The notes below the pieces were generated by a model, which saw nothing but the letters and a program-made list of their open reading frames with translations, searched no databases and was not told where the DNA came from. DNA of 11,139 nucleotides from the NCBI GenBank assembly GCA_047611865.1, contig JBLFWS010000111.1, forward strand, positions 1 to 11,139, given 5' to 3'. Positions 2,937 through 10,809 of the stretch are shown here, in pieces. Position numbers and translations under genes: made by a program. Origin of the DNA: Chlamydiales bacterium (GTDB lineage: Bacteria > Chlamydiota > Chlamydiia > Chlamydiales > JBDQID01). The first letter of the stretch is position 1, and every line of letters starts with the position of its first letter.

Positions 2937-4445
2937 TCAGATACTAAGTGTAAGAAGATCAATGGCGGCTTCCAATGAATATCTAGAAGGACTATGTGTT
3001 GCCACAAGAAGATCAGCATCAGGAAAAGCCTCAGCATCTCTGGGGTCCGCAAGAAGCAATACGATCGATTCTCTATTTTTCCCTATCTTCTGAAACAAGA
3101 CTGCCTGCACAGGCTGAAGAATAACTTGGTATGCGCAGAAAATAATTCTGTCTGCAGTAAGATTCAAATCCTCAGAAAAGTCGTCAACAAAATGAAAGCT
3201 TATCGAATCCCCCAGGGATGACCAATCAACTTTTTCGACATTTTCTTTCAAGCTTTTAGGAGCCACCACCAAGGTCTTGACAGCTTTATCTGTGAGTTTG
3301 CCCTTTTTCAAAAATATCGTAGATTTTTTTGCTACCTCTTTAGCCAGCTTTTGATGACTCGCCCATTCAGAGATCGAAATTCCCTCACTTCTGTCCATTA
3401 CTTTGTAACGCTGCTTCAATAATAGAATTCTTTCTACCGATTTGTTAAGCCTATCTTCTGAAATACGACCATTCCTTACCGCCTCAAGAACAGCATGGTA
3501 AATTCCTATAATTTCGTGTACGTGCTCTCTTTTGCCGTCTATAAAATCTCTTCCGCCAAAAAGCAGAATATCCACTCCTGCGTTAAAAGCTTGAATGGCT
3601 CCTTCAGCAATGCCCGAACAGCTATTCACAAATCCTCCCATAAAAAGCGAATCTGAGATAACGACTCCACGATACTGAAGATTTTGGCGAAGGAGGGTGG
3701 TAAGAATCTTTTCTGAGAGTGTCGCACAATTGTAAGGATCTATTTTTGGGAAAAGTATATGACCCGTCATGATGGCTGGAGCTTTTCCTGAAAGATTCTT
3801 AAAAGGTAAAAGCTCTGCAGCTTGCAATTCTTCCATCGTCTTATTGACTACAGGTAAAGAAGCATGTGAATCTACATCTGCGTCGCCATGCCCTGGAAAA
3901 TGCTTTGCTGTTGCTATAACTCGTGATTTCAAAAACCCCTCCAAAGCAAGAGCCCCCAACTTGCTCACCTCTTCAGGAACCTGTCCAAAAGAGCGTATAC
4001 CGATAACAGGGTTTTCGTAACGGGTGTTCACATCCACCACTGGAGAAAAATTCATATTGATTCCGGAAGAACGCAATTCTCTGCCCATGGCTTCTGCACA
4101 AGTTCTCGTAAGAGCGGGCTCTTTCGTTGCCGCTAAAGAAAAATTTCCGGGGAACTCGGTGAATCCCTTTTTCAACCTCGTCACACGCCCCCCCTCCTGG
4201 TCGATACCGATGAAGAGTGGTAAGACTCCTTGATCATTAGCTAATGCTTGCAAGCCGCTGCTTAGATTTGTAACTTGTTCATTGCTACTTAAGGCATTAG
4301 ACCATTCATAATAAATGACCCCTCCGATTCTCACCTCTTCAATTAACCTCCTTGCATCGCCATTTGCTTCTTCTCCGTGAAAAAAAGTCATAAACAGCTG
4401 CCCCACTTTTTCTTCCAAAGAGAGCTCTCTTTCCCCAATAAGCAT
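2937..4445 (-). CDS. nagZ: beta-N-acetylhexosaminidase, glycoside hydrolase family 3
   Basis: LEEKVGQLF, IDQEGGRV, NPVIGIRSFG, NagZ signature KHFPGHGDADVDSH and nucleophile motif VISDSLFM. Short C-terminal domain, no signal peptide, RBS AGGTG. Confidence 0.96.
   Translation of the reverse strand: MLIGERELSLEEKVGQLFMTFFHGEEANGDARRLIEEVRIGGVIYYEWSNALSSNEQVTNLSSGLQALANDQGVLPLFIGIDQEGGRVTRLKKGFTEFPGNFSLAATKEPALTRTCAEAMGRELRSSGINMNFSPVVDVNTRYENPVIGIRSFGQVPEEVSKLGALALEGFLKSRVIATAKHFPGHGDADVDSHASLPVVNKTMEELQAAELLPFKNLSGKAPAIMTGHILFPKIDPYNCATLSEKILTTLLRQNLQYRGVVISDSLFMGGFVNSCSGIAEGAIQAFNAGVDILLFGGRDFIDGKREHVHEIIGIYHAVLEAVRNGRISEDRLNKSVERILLLKQRYKVMDRSEGISISEWASHQKLAKEVAKKSTIFLKKGKLTDKAVKTLVVAPKSLKENVEKVDWSSLGDSISFHFVDDFSEDLNLTADRIIFCAYQVILQPVQAVLFQKIGKNRESIVLLLADPRDAEAFPDADLLVATHSPSRYSLEAAIDLLTLSI
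2949..3054 (+). repeat. 106-bp direct repeat, copy 2 (inside the nagZ 3' end)
   Basis: Matches 1450-1555 at 100/106. Confidence 0.97.
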
Positions 4446-4507: not shown

Positions 4508-6028
4508 ATGACCCCATCTACGACATTCACTACTTTGGATTGGTGTGTAGTCGCTGCGTACTTCCTTATAGTCCTTATCATTGGAGCCTACTTTTCCCGA
4601 GGTCAAAAAAACGACAGGGGCTTTTTTCTCGCTAACCGATCCATGCCCATGTGGGCCGTTTCCCTTTCCATTGTTGCTACATCCCTATCGGCCGTGACCT
4701 TTATCGGCGCCCCTCAAGAAGCCTTTCGTGGAGACCTATCCTACCTCATCCTCAATCTCGGCGGGCTGATTGCCGTTGTCATTATCGCCCAATTTTTTAT
4801 TCCCGCCTTTTACCAATCCAATAGCCTCACTATATACGGTTACCTCGAAAAACGCTTCAACTCCAAAGTACGCATTGCTGCTGGGATATGCTTTTTAGGA
4901 GGCCGCCTTCTTGCATCCGGCGCCCGCCTCTTCGCAGCCTCCCTTGCTGTCTCCCTACTTTTTTATGGCAATGCTCAAGGGAGCACCAGCCAGCTTATTA
5001 CTTGCATTGTTATTTTAGGAGCTACCGGTACAATCTATACCTTTTGCGGAGGTATCAAAGCTGTGATATGGACGGATGTTCTCCAAATCTTTGTCGTTAT
5101 TGGATCAGCCCTTCTCAGCATTGCAGTTCTGTACCAAAGCATCCCCCTTTCTTTTGAGGGGATGATCTCCTACTTATCCAATAGTCCAACCCATATTGAT
5201 GGGGGGAACAAGTTATCTGTACTACATACAAGCTTTGACTGGGCTACACCTTATAACATCTGGACAGGCCTTTTCGCCATTGTCTTTCTCAATATTGCCA
5301 GCTACGGCGTCGACCAGGATCTTGTTCAGCGTATGCTCACTTGCAAAAATGCCTGGCAAGGAGGCCTCTCTCTCATTATTTCCAACGTCATTGGGATTGC
5401 TGTAGTCATACTCTTTATGATCATCGGCTTGATGCTTTTTCTATTCAATGACCCTGAAATAATGGGAAGCAATGTCGCAAACTTTCAAGATGGAGCCCTC
5501 ATTTACCCGCAATTTTTAATTCAACATCTCCCTTCCGGTGTATCTGGATTGGCGATGGCGGGACTTCTCGCTGCGGCAATGAGCTCACTCGATTCCGCTA
5601 TCAACGCAATGGCTAGCAGTGTCATTGCCGATGTATGGCGCCCACTAAAAAAAACTAATACAGAAGAGTTCGAAGAAGGTACAAGCACAGCACGATGGAC
5701 TGTCGCCGGTACGGGTCTTGCATTAACTCTTTTTGCTATCTTCGCCGCACTAAGCTATGACCCTAAATCCGACACACTACTGGGCTTTGCTCTTGGTGTT
5801 ATGTCCTATGCATACGCCGGACTCCTTGGAGTATTCTTCACAGGCCTTTTCACCACAAGAGGTAGTACTTTGAGCGTCTACAGCGCTCTTTTTGCCGGAG
5901 CCTTCACCGTCCTTCTTTTACAACCGTATATGCTTCCAGCATTATGCGGTTTCTCTCTAGCGTGGCCTTGGTGGATGGTATTCGGAACAACTGTAAGCTT
6001 TATAACTTGTATAACAGGAAAGAAATAG
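4508..6028 (+). CDS. sodium:solute symporter (SSS/SLC5 family), probably an amino-sugar or muropeptide-sugar importer
   Basis: Many hydrophobic helices and motifs FFLANRSMPMWAVSLSIVATSLSAVTFIG, GGIKAVIWTDVLQ, DQDLVQRML and AAMSSLDSAINA. ATG at 4508 is preferred to TTG at 4445, which overlaps the nagZ start. Substrate inferred from context. Confidence 0.95.
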   Translation: MTPSTTFTTLDWCVVAAYFLIVLIIGAYFSRGQKNDRGFFLANRSMPMWAVSLSIVATSLSAVTFIGAPQEAFRGDLSYLILNLGGLIAVVIIAQFFIPAFYQSNSLTIYGYLEKRFNSKVRIAAGICFLGGRLLASGARLFAASLAVSLLFYGNAQGSTSQLITCIVILGATGTIYTFCGGIKAVIWTDVLQIFVVIGSALLSIAVLYQSIPLSFEGMISYLSNSPTHIDGGNKLSVLHTSFDWATPYNIWTGLFAIVFLNIASYGVDQDLVQRMLTCKNAWQGGLSLIISNVIGIAVVILFMIIGLMLFLFNDPEIMGSNVANFQDGALIYPQFLIQHLPSGVSGLAMAGLLAAAMSSLDSAINAMASSVIADVWRPLKKTNTEEFEEGTSTARWTVAGTGLALTLFAIFAALSYDPKSDTLLGFALGVMSYAYAGLLGVFFTGLFTTRGSTLSVYSALFAGAFTVLLLQPYMLPALCGFSLAWPWWMVFGTTVSFITCITGKK

Positions 6029-6029
6029 T

Positions 6030-8069
6030 ATGCATAAAACCGTTAGTACATCTTCTAAATGGACTGAGATAGAAGAAAACTTCAAAGAAAAAAGCAATTT
6101 CAACCCATCTACCCCAAAAGATCTTCTACCTCTCATAGAACTTAAAAACGGCGAAGAAATAGGTAAACTCTCATCCTTAAGCTTTATCCTTTGGCTAGCT
6201 AAAAACCCCAAAGGAGTCGCTGTACTTCCCATAGGCAAAAACTCCCTATCGTTTCTCTCCAGCCTGACACACTATGTCGTCCATTGGACTTCTCCAGATG
6301 TTCAAGAAGAATTAAATAGCCTTGGGATCTTTATGGAAATGTTTCCTGATACAAATAACGTCAAGTTGGTCCAGCCCTTTATTTTCAATCCTCCCCTTCA
6401 TCAATATCAAACCAGTCTTTACAAAAAACTCCTCCATATTGCGGACAAACATATTCTTTCTTTAAACCTCGAAGGGGTCAAACCCAGCAAGGTAGAAAAT
6501 GAATTTAGCACTCTCTGCCAACATACCCTTCGGCAATGGGGTGGCATTGGTTTCTACCTTTCAGAAATAGGTCAAGATGCTAATATTGGCTTCAATGCTC
6601 CTGGGTCTAAATTTAAGGATATCACACAACAATATCAGCCACCATATTCCACCCTCGCACAGATAGCTTCTGACTTTGGTGGCATTGACCATGTCAAAGG
6701 GAAGACTTTACTAACAATAGCCCTCGGTGGATTCCGTTCCGATGCTACGATCATCATTACAGGTACAGGCGAAGACAAAGCCCTATCTATTAAAGACGCC
6801 ATCGAAAAAACCGACAACTCTCACTTACCTATTAGCGCCGTTCGAAAATTAGCAAATATACGCTTTTACGTCACTGAGGGAGCGGCCTCCAAACTTTCTT
6901 CCAAACGCGGTGAAATAATCCGCACAGAAACCCCCCTTAGTCATAGGACAATCGACGATACGCTCATTGATCTTGCCCTTGAAAAGAAAAAACGACTTTC
7001 AGACCTTTCTTCCAATGACCTCGAAAGTGATGAGATGGGCAGATCTCTCCTATCCCGCCTATCCGACAATCTCGAATCTACGATTTCACAATGCAGACAA
7101 AGACTCATCGACAAAATGGGATTAGGACTTTCTCTACCCAAGAAGAAAACAATTCTGCATACAGCGCCCCACCATGACGACATTATGCTCTCCTATTATA
7201 GTAGTATCGACCCTCTGCTTTCTGAGAACAAAAACCATTTCACATACCTCACCAGTGGTAGTAACTCCGTTACTGACAAATTTGTAAAATCTCGTCTGAC
7301 TCCCAAAAACAGAAAAACCTCTCCCTTGTCTTACTCTGAACTTATCAATAGATTCTCCAAAGCCTACGAGGGCAATAGCCAAGAAGAGATGAATCTTCTT
7401 GAAAAAAAAATAATCCAGCAAAAAAAGATGGAGTTGGACTCTGAGGAAGACCTTAAGCCTCTAAAATCTTTTATCAGAGAGTCTGAAGTAGATCGCCTTT
7501 GGAGTTTGAAACAGGTCCCCCAAGAATGTATCACCCATTTTCGAGGTAAGTTTTACTCGGACATCAAGTTTATTAACGAAGATGCTCGCGAATTTAAGAA
7601 ACACATTGACGCCATCAACCCTGATATTATCACGCTTGCTCTAGACCCTGAGGGCACAGGCCCCACAACGCATCATCTCGTGCAGCGTATTATCACTGAT
7701 AGCCTTCGACGCTTTCTTGGAAATCCTCCCATAGAAATCTGGGGCTACCGCAATGTATGGTTCCAATTTTCCTGTTCCGAATGCAACCTTATCATTCCCG
7801 TCTCTAAAGACGCCCTCCAGGAACAGAACCGTGCTTTCCTCTCTTGCTTTCCCAGTCAGTCGAAGGCTGCCTTCCCCTCCCCTCGCCACGACGGCCCTTT
7901 TTCAGAGCTCTCGGAAAAGATTCTTAGGGAGCAGTATGAGCAGATTGTAAGTCTTCTCGGAGAAGATTTCCTCACCGATCACCCCGACGAACGCATCCGC
8001 TCCGCCCGTGGATTTGTTTTCATTCAGACCCTCTCGGTCAAGGAAATCATCCAAAAGGTCACCCACTAA
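6030..8069 (+). CDS. fusion of a degenerate glucosamine-6-phosphate deaminase (NagB)-like domain and a PIG-L/LmbE-family deacetylase
   Basis: N-domain LPIGKNS, GGIGFYLSEIGQDANIGFNAPGS, TGEDKA and FYVTEGAASKL follow the NagB motif order. C-domain has HTAPHHDD, IRESE, PDIITLALDPEGTGPTTH and WGYRNVW. Starts 1 nt after the symporter stop. Confidence 0.88.
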   Translation: MHKTVSTSSKWTEIEENFKEKSNFNPSTPKDLLPLIELKNGEEIGKLSSLSFILWLAKNPKGVAVLPIGKNSLSFLSSLTHYVVHWTSPDVQEELNSLGIFMEMFPDTNNVKLVQPFIFNPPLHQYQTSLYKKLLHIADKHILSLNLEGVKPSKVENEFSTLCQHTLRQWGGIGFYLSEIGQDANIGFNAPGSKFKDITQQYQPPYSTLAQIASDFGGIDHVKGKTLLTIALGGFRSDATIIITGTGEDKALSIKDAIEKTDNSHLPISAVRKLANIRFYVTEGAASKLSSKRGEIIRTETPLSHRTIDDTLIDLALEKKKRLSDLSSNDLESDEMGRSLLSRLSDNLESTISQCRQRLIDKMGLGLSLPKKKTILHTAPHHDDIMLSYYSSIDPLLSENKNHFTYLTSGSNSVTDKFVKSRLTPKNRKTSPLSYSELINRFSKAYEGNSQEEMNLLEKKIIQQKKMELDSEEDLKPLKSFIRESEVDRLWSLKQVPQECITHFRGKFYSDIKFINEDAREFKKHIDAINPDIITLALDPEGTGPTTHHLVQRIITDSLRRFLGNPPIEIWGYRNVWFQFSCSECNLIIPVSKDALQEQNRAFLSCFPSQSKAAFPSPRHDGPFSELSEKILREQYEQIVSLLGEDFLTDHPDERIRSARGFVFIQTLSVKEIIQKVTH

Positions 8070-8082
8070 CTTAAGGCTTTCT

Positions 8083-10809
8083 ATGACAGAGCAAATCCCA
8101 CTCCTTTCCCGCCTGCATCACTTCCCGTATATCTTTTGTATTGACGGAGGTGGATCCAAAACCGTCATGCAAGTCATCAATGGAGAAGGGAAACTACTTC
8201 CTTTGAAGCAGAATGGACAAGTCGTAGAAGCTGTTCGCTCTGGTGCCGCTAATATCTCTACCCTCTCTAAAGATATAGTCAGTAAAAGTCTGAAAGATCT
8301 TTTCCATCACGTCACTGTTGATGGAACGGAGATTTCCACTATATTTTCCAACTGCGCCGTAATCGGTGGCTTTGCTGGTGGGGAGCACCCTGAAAAAAGA
8401 GAAAGCCTTCTCTCTATCTTCGAAGATATAGGTATTCCGAGAGAAAATGCCTTCATCCGTAACGATGCTGAGCTGGCTTTGGAACTCGTGGGCAATGCTG
8501 GAGCTATCCTCGTCAGTGGAACAGGTTCTATTTGTTATGGGAGAAATGGAAACGAAACGAAACGTGTGGGAGGCCTCGGGAGATATCTAGGTGACGAAGG
8601 CAGTGGCCATTTCCTCGGTATGCAAGCCGTTAAAGCTGCGCTAGAAGAAGAATTTGTCTGGGGAGAACATACAACATTAACCCTTGCGCTACAGCAGCAC
8701 TTTCAAATGGAATCTCTAGGACCTTTGGCCTCTACCATCAATAGTGGTAAAATGGCAGCCTTTGACGTAGCCGTTCTTGCAGCTCATGTTTTTCACCATG
8801 CTCAACGCGGGGATCTCGTGGCAAGGAGGATCGCCTCTGAAGGAGCTCACCATCTGAGTAAGCTCCTAGCATCACTGCTCACCCAACTGAAGATATCACA
8901 ATGCAACGTCTACCTCGTCGGTGGAATTTTTAAAATTCCCTATTCTGAACAATTCATTGAAACCATTCGCCAGTCACCGGAGGTTTCGAGCCTGGATGAC
9001 CCCCTCTTGATCAATGTCAGCGACACATATATCGCCACACAAAGTACTATGGAAATCCTACGCCGCAATCAGAACCCTCGTTTCTGTGGACTCAGTTCCC
9101 TTCCGCATTCTCCCTCTACCCTCTCTGAGGATTCCCTAAAAAAAGTCCACTGCGGCCAACTCTCGACAGAACAATCCCACTCCCAGACTTCACAACTACA
9201 CAAAGTCTTTCAAAAGTCCAGCATAGAAGGCTTTGCTCTCCTCCACGATATTGACAAACAAGTGACAGCAAAACTCGCCTCCTTTCTGGAAGAACATTTT
9301 GTGGGCCTGTCTAAAAAAGTTCAGAAAACGATCCGCAAAGGCGGACGCATCTTCCTCGTTGGAGCGGGATCCAGCGGCAGAGTCGCCGTCTCCCTCGCTC
9401 GTAAATGGAGAGAGCACTGGAAAAATGATAAGTACTCCAATGCTGTGATACCTATTATCTCAGGTGGTGGCCGCGCCTTTGTACGCCCCAGAGAAGGTGA
9501 TGAAGACTCCATTGAAAAAGGGAAAGAAGCTCTTGCAAACTTTAAGCCGTGCTCGGATGACTTGAGTATTCTAATCTCGGCAAGTGGTTCTGCAAAATTT
9601 CACTTGGGAGTAGCATTGGTCGCCCATGCACATGGATGCGAAACGTGGATCTTTCAAAATACTCCCGAGTTACCTGAACACACCCAAGCTATAGTCCAGG
9701 AATATCAGGTACTCCCTCTAGTTCTCGACTTAGGCCCTCAGGCTATCACTGGTTCCACCAGACTACAAGCTGCCAACAGTGCACAGCTCTTTCTAGGCCT
9801 TCTTCTCGACGCCACCATTAGCGATTATGAAGACCCCCTTAAACGGGCATTAGATGTCCTCCGAAACTACGAAAAATCTATTGATTCTCTTCCTCAGCAT
9901 TTCGACGATTTAAAAAGAATTCTGGATACCACCGTAGAAATCTTTTCTTCCAAATCAGCCAACTTCTTTAGACAATCTGATGAAACAGAAGAGGGTTACG
10001 TCACCTACATCAGTGGTGATGACACCCTTACAGAAATCCTCATTGACACTGCTGAGACCGCTCCAACATTTTCCCTCAATCCTCCAAGAACTATCGAAGA
10101 AAAGGAAAAAAAGAAAGCCGAGTACAGAACGTATCTTTTAGGAGAAAGCAGCAACAAGGAAACATGGGCAAATCTTATCGGACCTTACCTGCCTATAAAT
10201 ACACAAAAAGACTCTAACGACCTCTTACTTTCCCAAAATGCAATCGGATTTGGCTCATACCTTGATCGTCCTAAAGGAACAGGTAATTTTGCAATTGGAG
10301 TCTTTACAGGAAAACCTAAGAAAGTTCTGGAAACAGAAATCGAAGCCATTAAAACTATTAGAGGCCGCACTGCCATTATCTCCATAAATAAAACCCAAAA
10401 CCTGGATATCATCCATGATATCATCCATCTAGACATCCAAGACATCTACGAGGACCCTTTAAAACTCATCCCTTCCCTTGTCCTCAAGCAAACCCTCAAC
10501 TACCTTTCTAACGGAGCTATGATACTAATGGGTAAAGTCCACGGAAACATCATGGTTGACCTCTCTCCGTCAAATGACAAACTTATCGATCGTGCTGTAC
10601 GCATTGTTAAAGAAATTTACTCAGAAAATCACCCTGGCGAAGCTCTTTTGGATGATGAACTGGTTTTCCAGGCAATATCGAGAGCCTTCCATTATAAGAA
10701 AGAGCACGAGAAATATCATAACACCTCTTATCCATCTCCAGTAAAAACAGTTTTAGCTATGTTAGAAAACCGTTGCGGGGTACAAGAAGCTTTTCGAAAG
10801 TGTGTTTAA
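8083..10809 (+). CDS. fusion of a BadF/BadG/BcrA/BcrD-type GlcNAc/MurNAc kinase and a tandem-SIS MurQ/GKRP-like domain (908 aa)
   Basis: Kinase motifs IDGGGSKT, NDA, SGTGS, GGLGRYLGDEGSG and VGGIF. SIS motifs STEQSH, GAGSSGR, EGDED, ISASG, GPQAITGSTRLQA, DTAETAPTF and GKVHGNIMVDLSPSNDKL. ATG at 8083 with AAGG upstream is preferred to GTG at 8008. Confidence 0.9.
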   Translation: MTEQIPLLSRLHHFPYIFCIDGGGSKTVMQVINGEGKLLPLKQNGQVVEAVRSGAANISTLSKDIVSKSLKDLFHHVTVDGTEISTIFSNCAVIGGFAGGEHPEKRESLLSIFEDIGIPRENAFIRNDAELALELVGNAGAILVSGTGSICYGRNGNETKRVGGLGRYLGDEGSGHFLGMQAVKAALEEEFVWGEHTTLTLALQQHFQMESLGPLASTINSGKMAAFDVAVLAAHVFHHAQRGDLVARRIASEGAHHLSKLLASLLTQLKISQCNVYLVGGIFKIPYSEQFIETIRQSPEVSSLDDPLLINVSDTYIATQSTMEILRRNQNPRFCGLSSLPHSPSTLSEDSLKKVHCGQLSTEQSHSQTSQLHKVFQKSSIEGFALLHDIDKQVTAKLASFLEEHFVGLSKKVQKTIRKGGRIFLVGAGSSGRVAVSLARKWREHWKNDKYSNAVIPIISGGGRAFVRPREGDEDSIEKGKEALANFKPCSDDLSILISASGSAKFHLGVALVAHAHGCETWIFQNTPELPEHTQAIVQEYQVLPLVLDLGPQAITGSTRLQAANSAQLFLGLLLDATISDYEDPLKRALDVLRNYEKSIDSLPQHFDDLKRILDTTVEIFSSKSANFFRQSDETEEGYVTYISGDDTLTEILIDTAETAPTFSLNPPRTIEEKEKKKAEYRTYLLGESSNKETWANLIGPYLPINTQKDSNDLLLSQNAIGFGSYLDRPKGTGNFAIGVFTGKPKKVLETEIEAIKTIRGRTAIISINKTQNLDIIHDIIHLDIQDIYEDPLKLIPSLVLKQTLNYLSNGAMILMGKVHGNIMVDLSPSNDKLIDRAVRIVKEIYSENHPGEALLDDELVFQAISRAFHYKKEHEKYHNTSYPSPVKTVLAMLENRCGVQEAFRKCV

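Follow-up and report, generated by a model that had tools for sequence, protein, structure and literature searches.

A NagB–LmbE fusion protein of a Chlamydiales bacterium with a degenerate deaminase domain and a putative deacetylase domain

The DNA analysed here (hereafter, the window) is the whole 11,139-nt stretch of contig JBLFWS010000111.1 of assembly GCA_047611865.1, from a Chlamydiales bacterium, and the gene of interest within it, P0001, encodes a fusion of a NagB-like domain and an LmbE/PIG-L-like domain. On balance we consider it probable that P0001 is a former bifunctional LmbE-type deacetylase/NagB-type deaminase of which only the deacetylase half still works, with N-acetylglucosamine 6-phosphate (GlcNAc-6P) as its probable substrate and the dead N-terminal domain (N-domain) as a remnant. 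P0001 is a case of a pseudo-enzyme domain in a widely annotated, uncharacterised fusion family. An earlier reading of the letters by a model (hereafter, the sequence-only reading) had described the protein as a pseudo-deaminase retained as a scaffold or ligand sensor on an active deacetylase, the reverse of the usual annotation.

Results

A NagB fold that has lost key deaminase residues

Homology of the N-domain to NagB was apparent from profile comparison, in which a profile of 66 family members matched E. coli K-12 NagB with a probability of 99.6% (hhalign, E = 7.9e-24). A phmmer search of the Protein Data Bank (PDB) matched 11 distinct sequences, all of them NagB, the best being 3hn6 (E = 6e-9), whose 'igpdghiafnepgs' is paired with 'igqdanigfnapgs' of the query. 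For the whole protein the ESM Atlas has a model with a predicted template modelling score (pTM) of 0.81 and a predicted local distance difference test score (pLDDT) of 0.80; the N part of this model gives template modelling (TM) scores of 0.72–0.89 to NagB-family models, with 0.72 to a PF01182 cluster. As judged from these alignments and models, the N-domain has a homologous NagB fold. Its score on TIGR00502 is 51.9 bits vs a cut-off of 236.9, and a Pfam search of P0001 gave no NagB (PF01182) match at E ≤ 0.01.

To place the protein in its family we used a word-indexed search that scored 7999 candidates and found 1198 of them to be relatives at E ≤ 0.001, and aligned the best 120 of the 1198 with MAFFT. 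P0006, also of 679 aa, is 77% identical to the query without gaps, and the rest of these 120 are at most 38% identical; most of them are 780–810 aa long. The public names of P0001 relatives read 'glucosamine-6-phosphate deaminase'. Scans of genome and metagenome contigs for the DNA of P0006 and of P0038, another relative with a degenerate N-domain, found nothing nearer than ~42% identity. The best NCBIfam match of P0001 is PRK02122, 'glucosamine-6-phosphate (GlcN-6P) deaminase-like', a NagB-like then PIG-L-like chain, at 128.8 bits vs a cut-off of 384; the match pairs query residues 155–615 with profile positions 142–610 of 653. Five intact relatives of ~790 aa score 186.8–221.1 bits, likewise under 384. 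By these profile scores P0001 and its ~790-aa relatives are a sister subfamily of PRK02122.

Residue numbering was mapped by MAFFT with E. coli NagB, and most of the positions compared are changed in the query: Thr41 to Ile68, Asp72 to Phe117, Glu73 to Ile118, Gly142 to Ala184, His143 to Asn185, Glu148 to Ala190 and Arg158 to Gln200. Asp141 and Lys208 are kept as Asp183 and Lys250. In the E. coli enzyme Asp72 is catalytic and His143 is an active-site residue, and Asp141 likewise has a catalytic role. The family consensus over the 120 aligned sequences (query and P0006 included) is LPTGKTPE, FVQ(I/L)DEFYP and GGIGPDGHI(G/A)FN, an ordinary NagB active site. The phosphate-loop columns altered in the query hold Thr in 109/120, Thr in 111/120 and Pro in 115/120 family sequences, and the other altered columns hold Glu in 116/120, Asp in 110/120 (Glu in 6 more), Glu in 117/120, Gly in 118/120 and His in 115/120, a pattern well beyond chance. 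The Glu148 column is occupied by Val in 74, Met in 14 and Ile in 12 of the 120; the loss of Glu148 in the query is uninformative because this column is unconserved in the fusion family.

These alignments support the view that the N-domain is a NagB fold without equivalents of Asp72 and His143 and without the phosphate-loop threonines. They bear out the apparently dead deaminase domain that the sequence-only reading had drawn by eye from motifs of E. coli NagB, all five sets of whose motif coordinates are exact on the translation of 6030–8069, a single frame open over 679 codons, as that reading had also said. Its replacement of LPTGxTP by LPIGKNS falls on positions that are near-invariant in the family; its DEY motif devoid of acidic residues corresponds, in both MAFFT and hhalign, to Phe117 and Ile118 at Asp72 and Glu73; and no Asp or His stands at the Asp72 and His143 columns. 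Only part of its third claim, the change of DGHIAFNE to DANIGFNA, carries the same weight: His143 is indeed lost, Asp141 is still there and the Glu148 change says nothing.

A C-domain that keeps its putative metal ligands

The C-terminal domain (C-domain) carries a PHHDD motif (Table 1) in which, across 66 sequences, P380, D383 and D384 are invariant and H381 and H382 are at least 90% conserved, and which aligns with PHpDD of diacetylchitobiose deacetylases. The distal His548, invariant in the same 66 sequences, lies within the Pfam PIG-L match (residues 378–556), a placement made by sequence only. By homology, His381, Asp384 and His548 would converge on one putative metal site; the putative metal and base roles of the His/Asp/Asp/His set of P0001 are those of the corresponding residues in MshB and BshB. 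The C-half keeps H377, P380, D383, D384, R483, E484, E486, H503, R505, H548, Y573, R574, N575 and W577. Among its motifs only GPDTH is altered, with Thr in place of Asp546; P0038, the C-only relatives and one more subgroup lack this Asp too.

Taken alone, the sequence evidence for LmbE/PIG-L identity of the C-half is weak: a nine-sequence profile reaches diacetylchitobiose deacetylases at E 0.02 only, pairing 'LHtaPHHDD' with 'LciePHpDD'. The C part of the Atlas model matches PIG-L clusters with a TM score of 0.78, and the C-domain is predicted to have the LmbE fold; an AlphaFold2 model of this domain alone shows a ~90-residue helical insertion (model residues ~50–130) that is partly of low pLDDT. 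From motifs and fold together we infer that the C-domain would act as a deacetylase. The PHHDD motif and distal His of the sequence-only reading are both kept where it had placed them, and its pseudo-deaminase on an active deacetylase stands as far as the lost deaminase residues, the retained His/Asp/Asp/His set and the LmbE fold are concerned, the activity itself being a prediction from alignments and models.

Unequal constraint on the two halves

To compare the halves we counted a column as conserved if at least 90% of the other 118 sequences agree in it. Of 92 such columns in residues 1–300 the query retains 56 (61%), vs 62 of 81 in residues 371–679 (77%; Fisher p 0.034), and the family medians are 98% and 99%, so both halves are unusually divergent, the N-half more so. 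Losses in the N-half are the catalytic and phosphate-loop residues, and the C-half keeps its putative ligands and motifs. Among intact members, compared in 190 pairs, conservation is usually higher in the N-domain (N/C identity ratio, median 1.17, range 0.87–1.46). The ratio is 0.91 for the query vs P0006 (N 0.74, C 0.81), 0.50 for the query vs P0038 (N 0.26, C 0.51, with 70 gapped N-domain positions) and 0.52 for P0006 vs P0038, and within the query clade the N-domain, on these identities, diverges about twice as fast as the C-domain.

The query N-domain is nearer to that of the intact P0007 (38%) than to that of the degenerate P0038 (26%), which therefore points to relaxed constraint in lineage-specific directions. 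Between the query and P0006 the N-domain is still open, gap-free and foldable by model. These comparisons suggest that the dead domain is a structural remnant under weak constraint and not a sensor. The scaffold offered by the sequence-only reading is a possible role; since the domain is deleted in clade-mates, as described below, weakly constrained remnant is the better term.

Probable stages of domain loss in Chlamydiales

A homologue was found in 6 of 400 scored genomes of the order, the window's own included. NagB motifs are intact in two of them (G021, 729 aa; G147, at least 791 aa), a third (G041) has a divergent 607-aa form, and two others (G023, 336 aa; G095, 321 aa) encode the C-domain alone with PHHDD, RExE, His and YRN motifs intact. 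The C-only gene of G023 sits between a symporter 61% identical to that of the window and a kinase–MurQ fusion, which is the arrangement of the window, and the same arrangement is found in L245 ('Chlamydiae bacterium'), where the 358–364-aa C-only protein is identical to P0126. Two further loci, L234 and L235, repeat the G001 and G023 arrangements and were left out of the counts.

Maximum-likelihood trees of the C-domain (quick trees in two builds, of 50 rows and then of 48 without two long branches) unite the query, P0006 and P0038, whose N-domains are all degenerate, with the C-only G023, P0130, P0125 and P0126, at a Shimodaira–Hasegawa-like approximate likelihood ratio (SH-aLRT) support of 99 in both builds. 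Two of the four C-only clade members hold the same operon slot in other Chlamydiales. NagB motifs are intact in the neighbouring tree groups (P0007, P0019, P0015, P0023 and P0020; P0017 and P0022). The N-domain is dispensable in principle, having been lost entirely by clade-mates that fill the same operon slot.

The C-only homologue of G095 (L113, G095:C1 9885–10850) lies outside any Mur cluster. It adjoins an opposite-strand potABCD-like polyamine ABC transporter and an S-adenosylmethionine-dependent methyltransferase, a setting that hints at a lineage-dependent substrate.

Family-wide survey of cluster representatives

Searched exhaustively with HMMER, 1.84 billion cluster representatives gave 730 relatives at E ≤ 0.001, of which the best 150 were examined; all counts of representatives in this text refer to these. 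The aligned rows comprised 58 two-domain, 36 C-only, 4 N-only and 53 partial sequences, counts that may be inflated by misalignment of the most divergent rows and in which some short rows may be fragments, though 29 of the 36 C-only rows start with Met. HxDD is present in 51 of the 58 two-domain rows and His548 in 54; among the C-only rows HxDD is present in 33 of 36 (the other three are gapped there) and His548 in all 36. An equivalent of Asp72 or His143 is missing from 14 of the 58 two-domain rows, eight of which, the query and P0006 included, keep HxDD and His548. By these alignments the C-domain is the common denominator of the family, and NagB chemistry has been lost repeatedly. It is also common for both domains to have decayed together, as would fit two activities of one pathway.

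Six representatives (P0181, P0185, P0189, P0211, P0212 and P0240) have lost key residues in both domains and are candidates for fully non-catalytic members.

Amino-sugar genes of the genome

The assembly, 95.5% complete, amounts to 3.59 Mb in 272 contigs. A search of the genome with the NagA model gave no NagA; its best match, of 22.8 bits on contig C142, proved to be a dihydropyrimidinase (549.5 bits). The NagB model found no other NagB in the genome besides the query (53.9 bits), SIS-type deaminases not having been searched for; a second NagB candidate, on contig C74, was rejected as a contig-end 6-phosphogluconolactonase-like fragment adjoining an OpcA-like gene. GlmS (800.9 bits) and GlmM (620.2 bits) are present and adjacent. 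The best partial matches to GlmU lie on different contigs (C1, C58), one being a hexapeptide-repeat protein of 242 aa and the other a nucleotidyltransferase of 267 aa, and GlmU may be split or divergent.

Displacement of NagA by the family was considered and set aside: NagA is found in 0 of 6 Chlamydiales genomes with a family member, a count that is uninformative given that NagA occurs in only 38 of 401 genomes of the order.

Discussion

Proposed role in amino-sugar salvage

In the role that we propose, the transporter, NagZ-like enzyme, kinase and MurQ encoded in the window (Table 1) would turn N-acetylmuramic acid (MurNAc) as well as GlcNAc of the cell wall into GlcNAc-6P, from which the C-domain would strip the acetyl group by metal-assisted hydrolysis. 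The resulting GlcN-6P, not being deaminated to fructose 6-phosphate, would enter the GlmS/GlmM route to uridine diphosphate-GlcNAc (UDP-GlcNAc), and a GlcNAc-6P deacetylase would in this way link the MurNAc module to GlmM. Once its deaminase chemistry is lost, an enzyme of catabolism would become one of anabolic salvage. The dead N-domain would persist folded and weakly constrained, and sister lineages have already deleted it. Accumulation of GlcNAc-6P is reported to harm enteric bacteria, and by analogy such toxicity would explain why a deacetylase is retained downstream of MurQ.

A broader proposal, which we put forward tentatively and regard as possible, is that environmental Chlamydiales genomes keep all stages in the reduction of a bifunctional catabolic enzyme to one activity, with the intact fusion (G021, G147), the fusion with a dead but folded NagB domain (P0001, P0006, P0038) and the stand-alone LmbE protein in the same operon slot (G023, L245). 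The LmbE domain would then be a previously unrecognised GlcNAc-6P deacetylase that replaces NagA in these bacteria and routes recycled or scavenged MurNAc and GlcNAc to cell-wall and lipopolysaccharide (LPS) synthesis without NagA and NagB.

Several results weigh against the reading of P0001 as a working GlcNAc-6P deacetylase. The C-domain has drifted too, with 19 of its 81 conserved columns gone, Asp546 among them, and its match to Pfam PIG-L (PF02585), at 16.7 bits and E 0.011, falls short of the gathering score of 28.2. Six of the 14 N-degenerate representatives are also altered at C-domain ligand positions, so one-sided decay is not the rule. A search of the genome with the GlmU model gave nothing over the cut-off, and for that reason the route onward from GlcN-6P is assumed from GlmS and GlmM. 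Of five sampled genomes that encode intact family members, four have NagA as well, so the domain need not stand in for NagA. No amino-sugar operon is common to the neighbourhoods of 80 intact relatives, where the commonest neighbours are an NAD epimerase (17), an integrase (13) and a sulfatase (12), and these neighbourhoods consequently say nothing on the substrate. Among the 35 MurQ-bearing genomes of the order (defined by a MurQ-type match of at least 33% identity, which leaves out nine genomes with 27–29% matches), 10 have NagA, two have the P0001 family and 23 have neither, so a deacetylase is not obligatory for the module. Finally, in G001, the only sampled genome from the taxonomic family of the window's own and one that is 68% complete, the symporter (67% identical) is followed directly by the kinase–MurQ gene with no gene between.

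The substrate is the weakest link of our interpretation. We presume that the Bacteroides protein BT_0258 is a PRK02122 member. PMC13634575 lists BT_0258 as a deaminase isozyme. Our literature search found no biochemical study of NagB–PIG-L fusions of either subfamily, of LmbE enzymes acting on GlcNAc-6P, or of Chlamydiae MurQ. The C-domain could instead be an active LmbE-type hydrolase of another compound, such as GlcNAc released by NagZ, MurNAc-6P, GalNAc-6P or a different N-acetylated sugar, beside an N-domain that is equally dead; we think this rather unlikely, though it deserves to be taken seriously. The solved LmbE relatives are reported to act on unphosphorylated GlcNAc conjugates such as chitobiose, GlcNAc-malate and GlcNAc-inositol, and the co-occurrence of intact members with NagA, the potABCD-like neighbour of the G095 homologue and the many MurQ-bearing relatives that do without such an enzyme all agree with a different substrate. 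Yet an ancestor fused to a GlcN-6P deaminase fold speaks for a product phosphorylated at position 6, NagA was not found in the window's genome, and MurQ, the last enzyme of the operon, makes GlcNAc-6P according to PMC10465942.

It is highly unlikely that the whole gene is decaying or non-enzymatic, with both domains relaxed and the product a remnant or a binding or regulatory protein. The depressed retention of conserved columns in both halves, the missing Asp546, the absence of the gene from G001 and the loss of C-ligands in six N-degenerate representatives would be expected from such decay; the frame, however, is intact, the 77% gap-free identity to P0006 rises to 81% in the C-domain, all putative ligands and the RExE and YRN motifs are kept in P0001, these motifs are shared by C-only orthologues in the same operon slot, and spacers of 1 nt and 13 nt tie the gene closely to its operon neighbours. 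Least likely of all is a new conserved role for the N-domain, as an allosteric module, an enzyme with different catalytic residues or the ligand sensor of the sequence-only reading, because, despite a predicted fold that is kept (pTM 0.81; N part TM up to 0.89), 74% identity to P0006 and the retained Asp183 and Lys250, the phosphate loop is degenerate, the Arg158 equivalent is Gln200, the N-domains of the query and P0038 are 26% identical, with 70 gapped positions (below the 38% to the intact P0007), no shared new motif or conserved site is visible, and clade-mates deleted the domain.

Locus layout and neighbouring genes

Three genes of the window are co-oriented, encoding a sodium:solute symporter, the P0001 fusion and a kinase–MurQ fusion, and the NagZ-like gene is divergent (Table 1). 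The P0001 ATG follows the symporter stop after a 1-nt spacer. The kinase–MurQ open reading frame (ORF) is open from a GTG at 8008, and its likely start is 13 nt past the P0001 stop. Transporter, sugar kinase and MurNAc-6P etherase are thus encoded together in the window as in a murTKQ-like module, and this trio of symporter, kinase and MurQ recurs in G001, G023 and L245. In a set of 80 loci, relatives of the symporter adjoin NagZ in eight and MurQ-like genes in nine. The NagZ-like protein scores 199.9 bits on NCBIfam PRK05337 vs a cut-off of 207, and a signal peptide was not evident when its N-terminus was read.

Table 1 Features of the window and of the P0001 protein
Feature	Coordinates	Strand	Remarks
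Ankyrin/RING protein, 296 aa	1909..2799	−	At least 4 ankyrin repeats; N-terminal RING-H2-type zinc finger
Glycoside hydrolase family 3 (GH3) beta-N-acetylhexosaminidase (NagZ-like)	2937..4445	−	Pfam Glyco_hydro_3, 254.9 bits
Sodium:solute symporter	4508..6028	+	Pfam SSF, 129.1 bits; ORF open from TTG 4445, likely start ATG 4508
P0001, 679 aa: NagB-like domain, helical linker, LmbE/PIG-L-like domain	6030..8069	+	One open frame
N-domain, NagB fold with degenerate active site	6030..6929	+	Residues 1–300
Degenerate phosphate loop LPIGKNS	6225..6245	+	Residues 66–72; family LPTGKTP, E. coli LPTGGTP
VQPFIFNP replacing FVQ(I/L)DEFYP	6369..6392	+	Residues 114–121; Phe117/Ile118 at Asp72/Glu73; 7-residue deletion after
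DANIGFNA replacing DGHI(G/A)FN	6576..6599	+	Residues 183–190; Asp183 kept, Asn185 for His143
Linker	6930..7139	+	Residues 301–370; last part also in C-only relatives
C-domain, LmbE/PIG-L fold, putative metal-dependent N-deacetylase	7140..8066	+	Residues 371–679
PHHDD	7167..7181	+	Residues 380–384; His381 and Asp384 putative metal ligands, Asp383 putative general base
RESE (R483, E484, E486)	7476..7487	+	Family-invariant, kept; REE in 54/58 two-domain representatives
GPTTH	7659..7673	+	His548 kept (7671–7673; 54/58 representatives); family Asp546 (45/58) replaced by Thr
WGYRNVW	7740..7760	+	Family-invariant, kept
BadF/BadG-type sugar kinase fused to MurQ-like etherase, with GKRP-like insert and lid	8083..10809	+	909–933 aa; likely start ATG 8083

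The etherase half of the kinase–MurQ protein is split by a ~230-aa insert, and its C-terminal lid resembles glucokinase regulatory protein (GKRP). Pfam reports GKRP_SIS_N at 49.7 bits and GKRP-like_C at 22.8 bits, and searches of the PDB align MurQ 4s12 in two separated stretches and GKRP chains at E ~1e-12. Of 400 genomes of the order, 54 have a match to the kinase–MurQ protein, be it to its MurQ part, its kinase part or both; ~27 of these have a MurQ-only form, in open frames of roughly 560–880 aa.

The architecture of the ankyrin/RING protein is eukaryote-like and typical of effectors of intracellular bacteria. Positions 1–1900 of the window, an AT-rich stretch (GC 0.36–0.41), hold five ORFs of 83–127 aa, none of which has a Pfam match. 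Scans of the window for tRNA genes, Rfam families and repeats gave no tRNA, no Rfam match and no relevant repeat.

Implications for annotation and Chlamydiales metabolism

The main interest of these results lies in annotation and in Chlamydiales amino-sugar salvage. As the sequence-only reading had anticipated in reversing the usual annotation, the name that P0001 would inherit from its relatives, 'glucosamine-6-phosphate deaminase', would mislabel it. The deaminase name is probably wrong for P0001 and for about a quarter of the two-domain representatives (14/58), and metabolic reconstructions that use it would wrongly predict amino-sugar catabolism. If GlcNAc-6P deacetylation by the C-domain is true, the NagA step would have a second solution, unrelated to the first, and NagA-less Chlamydiales would have a recycling route for cell-wall sugars, with a bearing on peptidoglycan upkeep in these intracellular bacteria. 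The range of domain states, from intact through dead to deleted, offers a clean example in nature of the origin and later loss of a pseudo-enzyme domain.

Comparison with known systems

P0001 shares with E. coli NagB (b0678) the same fold, with homology over residues 7–247, the GGIG...FN core and the Asp141 and Lys208 equivalents, and differs from it in the degenerate phosphate loop, in the changed Asp72, Glu73, His143 and Thr41 positions and in the fused second domain. The long NagB proteins of PRK02122/NF002557 have the same NagB-like then PIG-L-like order, although P0001 and its ~790-aa relatives all fall under their 384-bit cut-off. Solved LmbE/PIG-L deacetylases (8bgo, 3we7, BshB 6p2t, MshB 1q74, TT1542 1uan) are 10–17% identical to the C-domain, which, unlike them, has the helical insertion and the extra invariant RExE, WGYRNVW and DGPFS motifs.

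NagA, of the amidohydrolase superfamily, resembles the C-domain in the proposed reaction, GlcNAc-6P to GlcN-6P, and in the position downstream of MurQ, whereas the folds are unrelated; the two would be functional analogues by proposal only, and no anticorrelation with NagA emerged from the genomes compared. The nearest parallel to the locus is murTKQ of Tannerella forsythia, which, as described in PMC10465942 and PMC7670621, takes up MurNAc, phosphorylates it and turns MurNAc-6P into GlcNAc-6P. The operon of the window follows the same logic, with transporter, sugar kinase and MurNAc-6P etherase together, but its kinase and etherase are fused, the etherase carries the GKRP-like insert, and genes for NagZ and for the NagB/LmbE fusion have been added.

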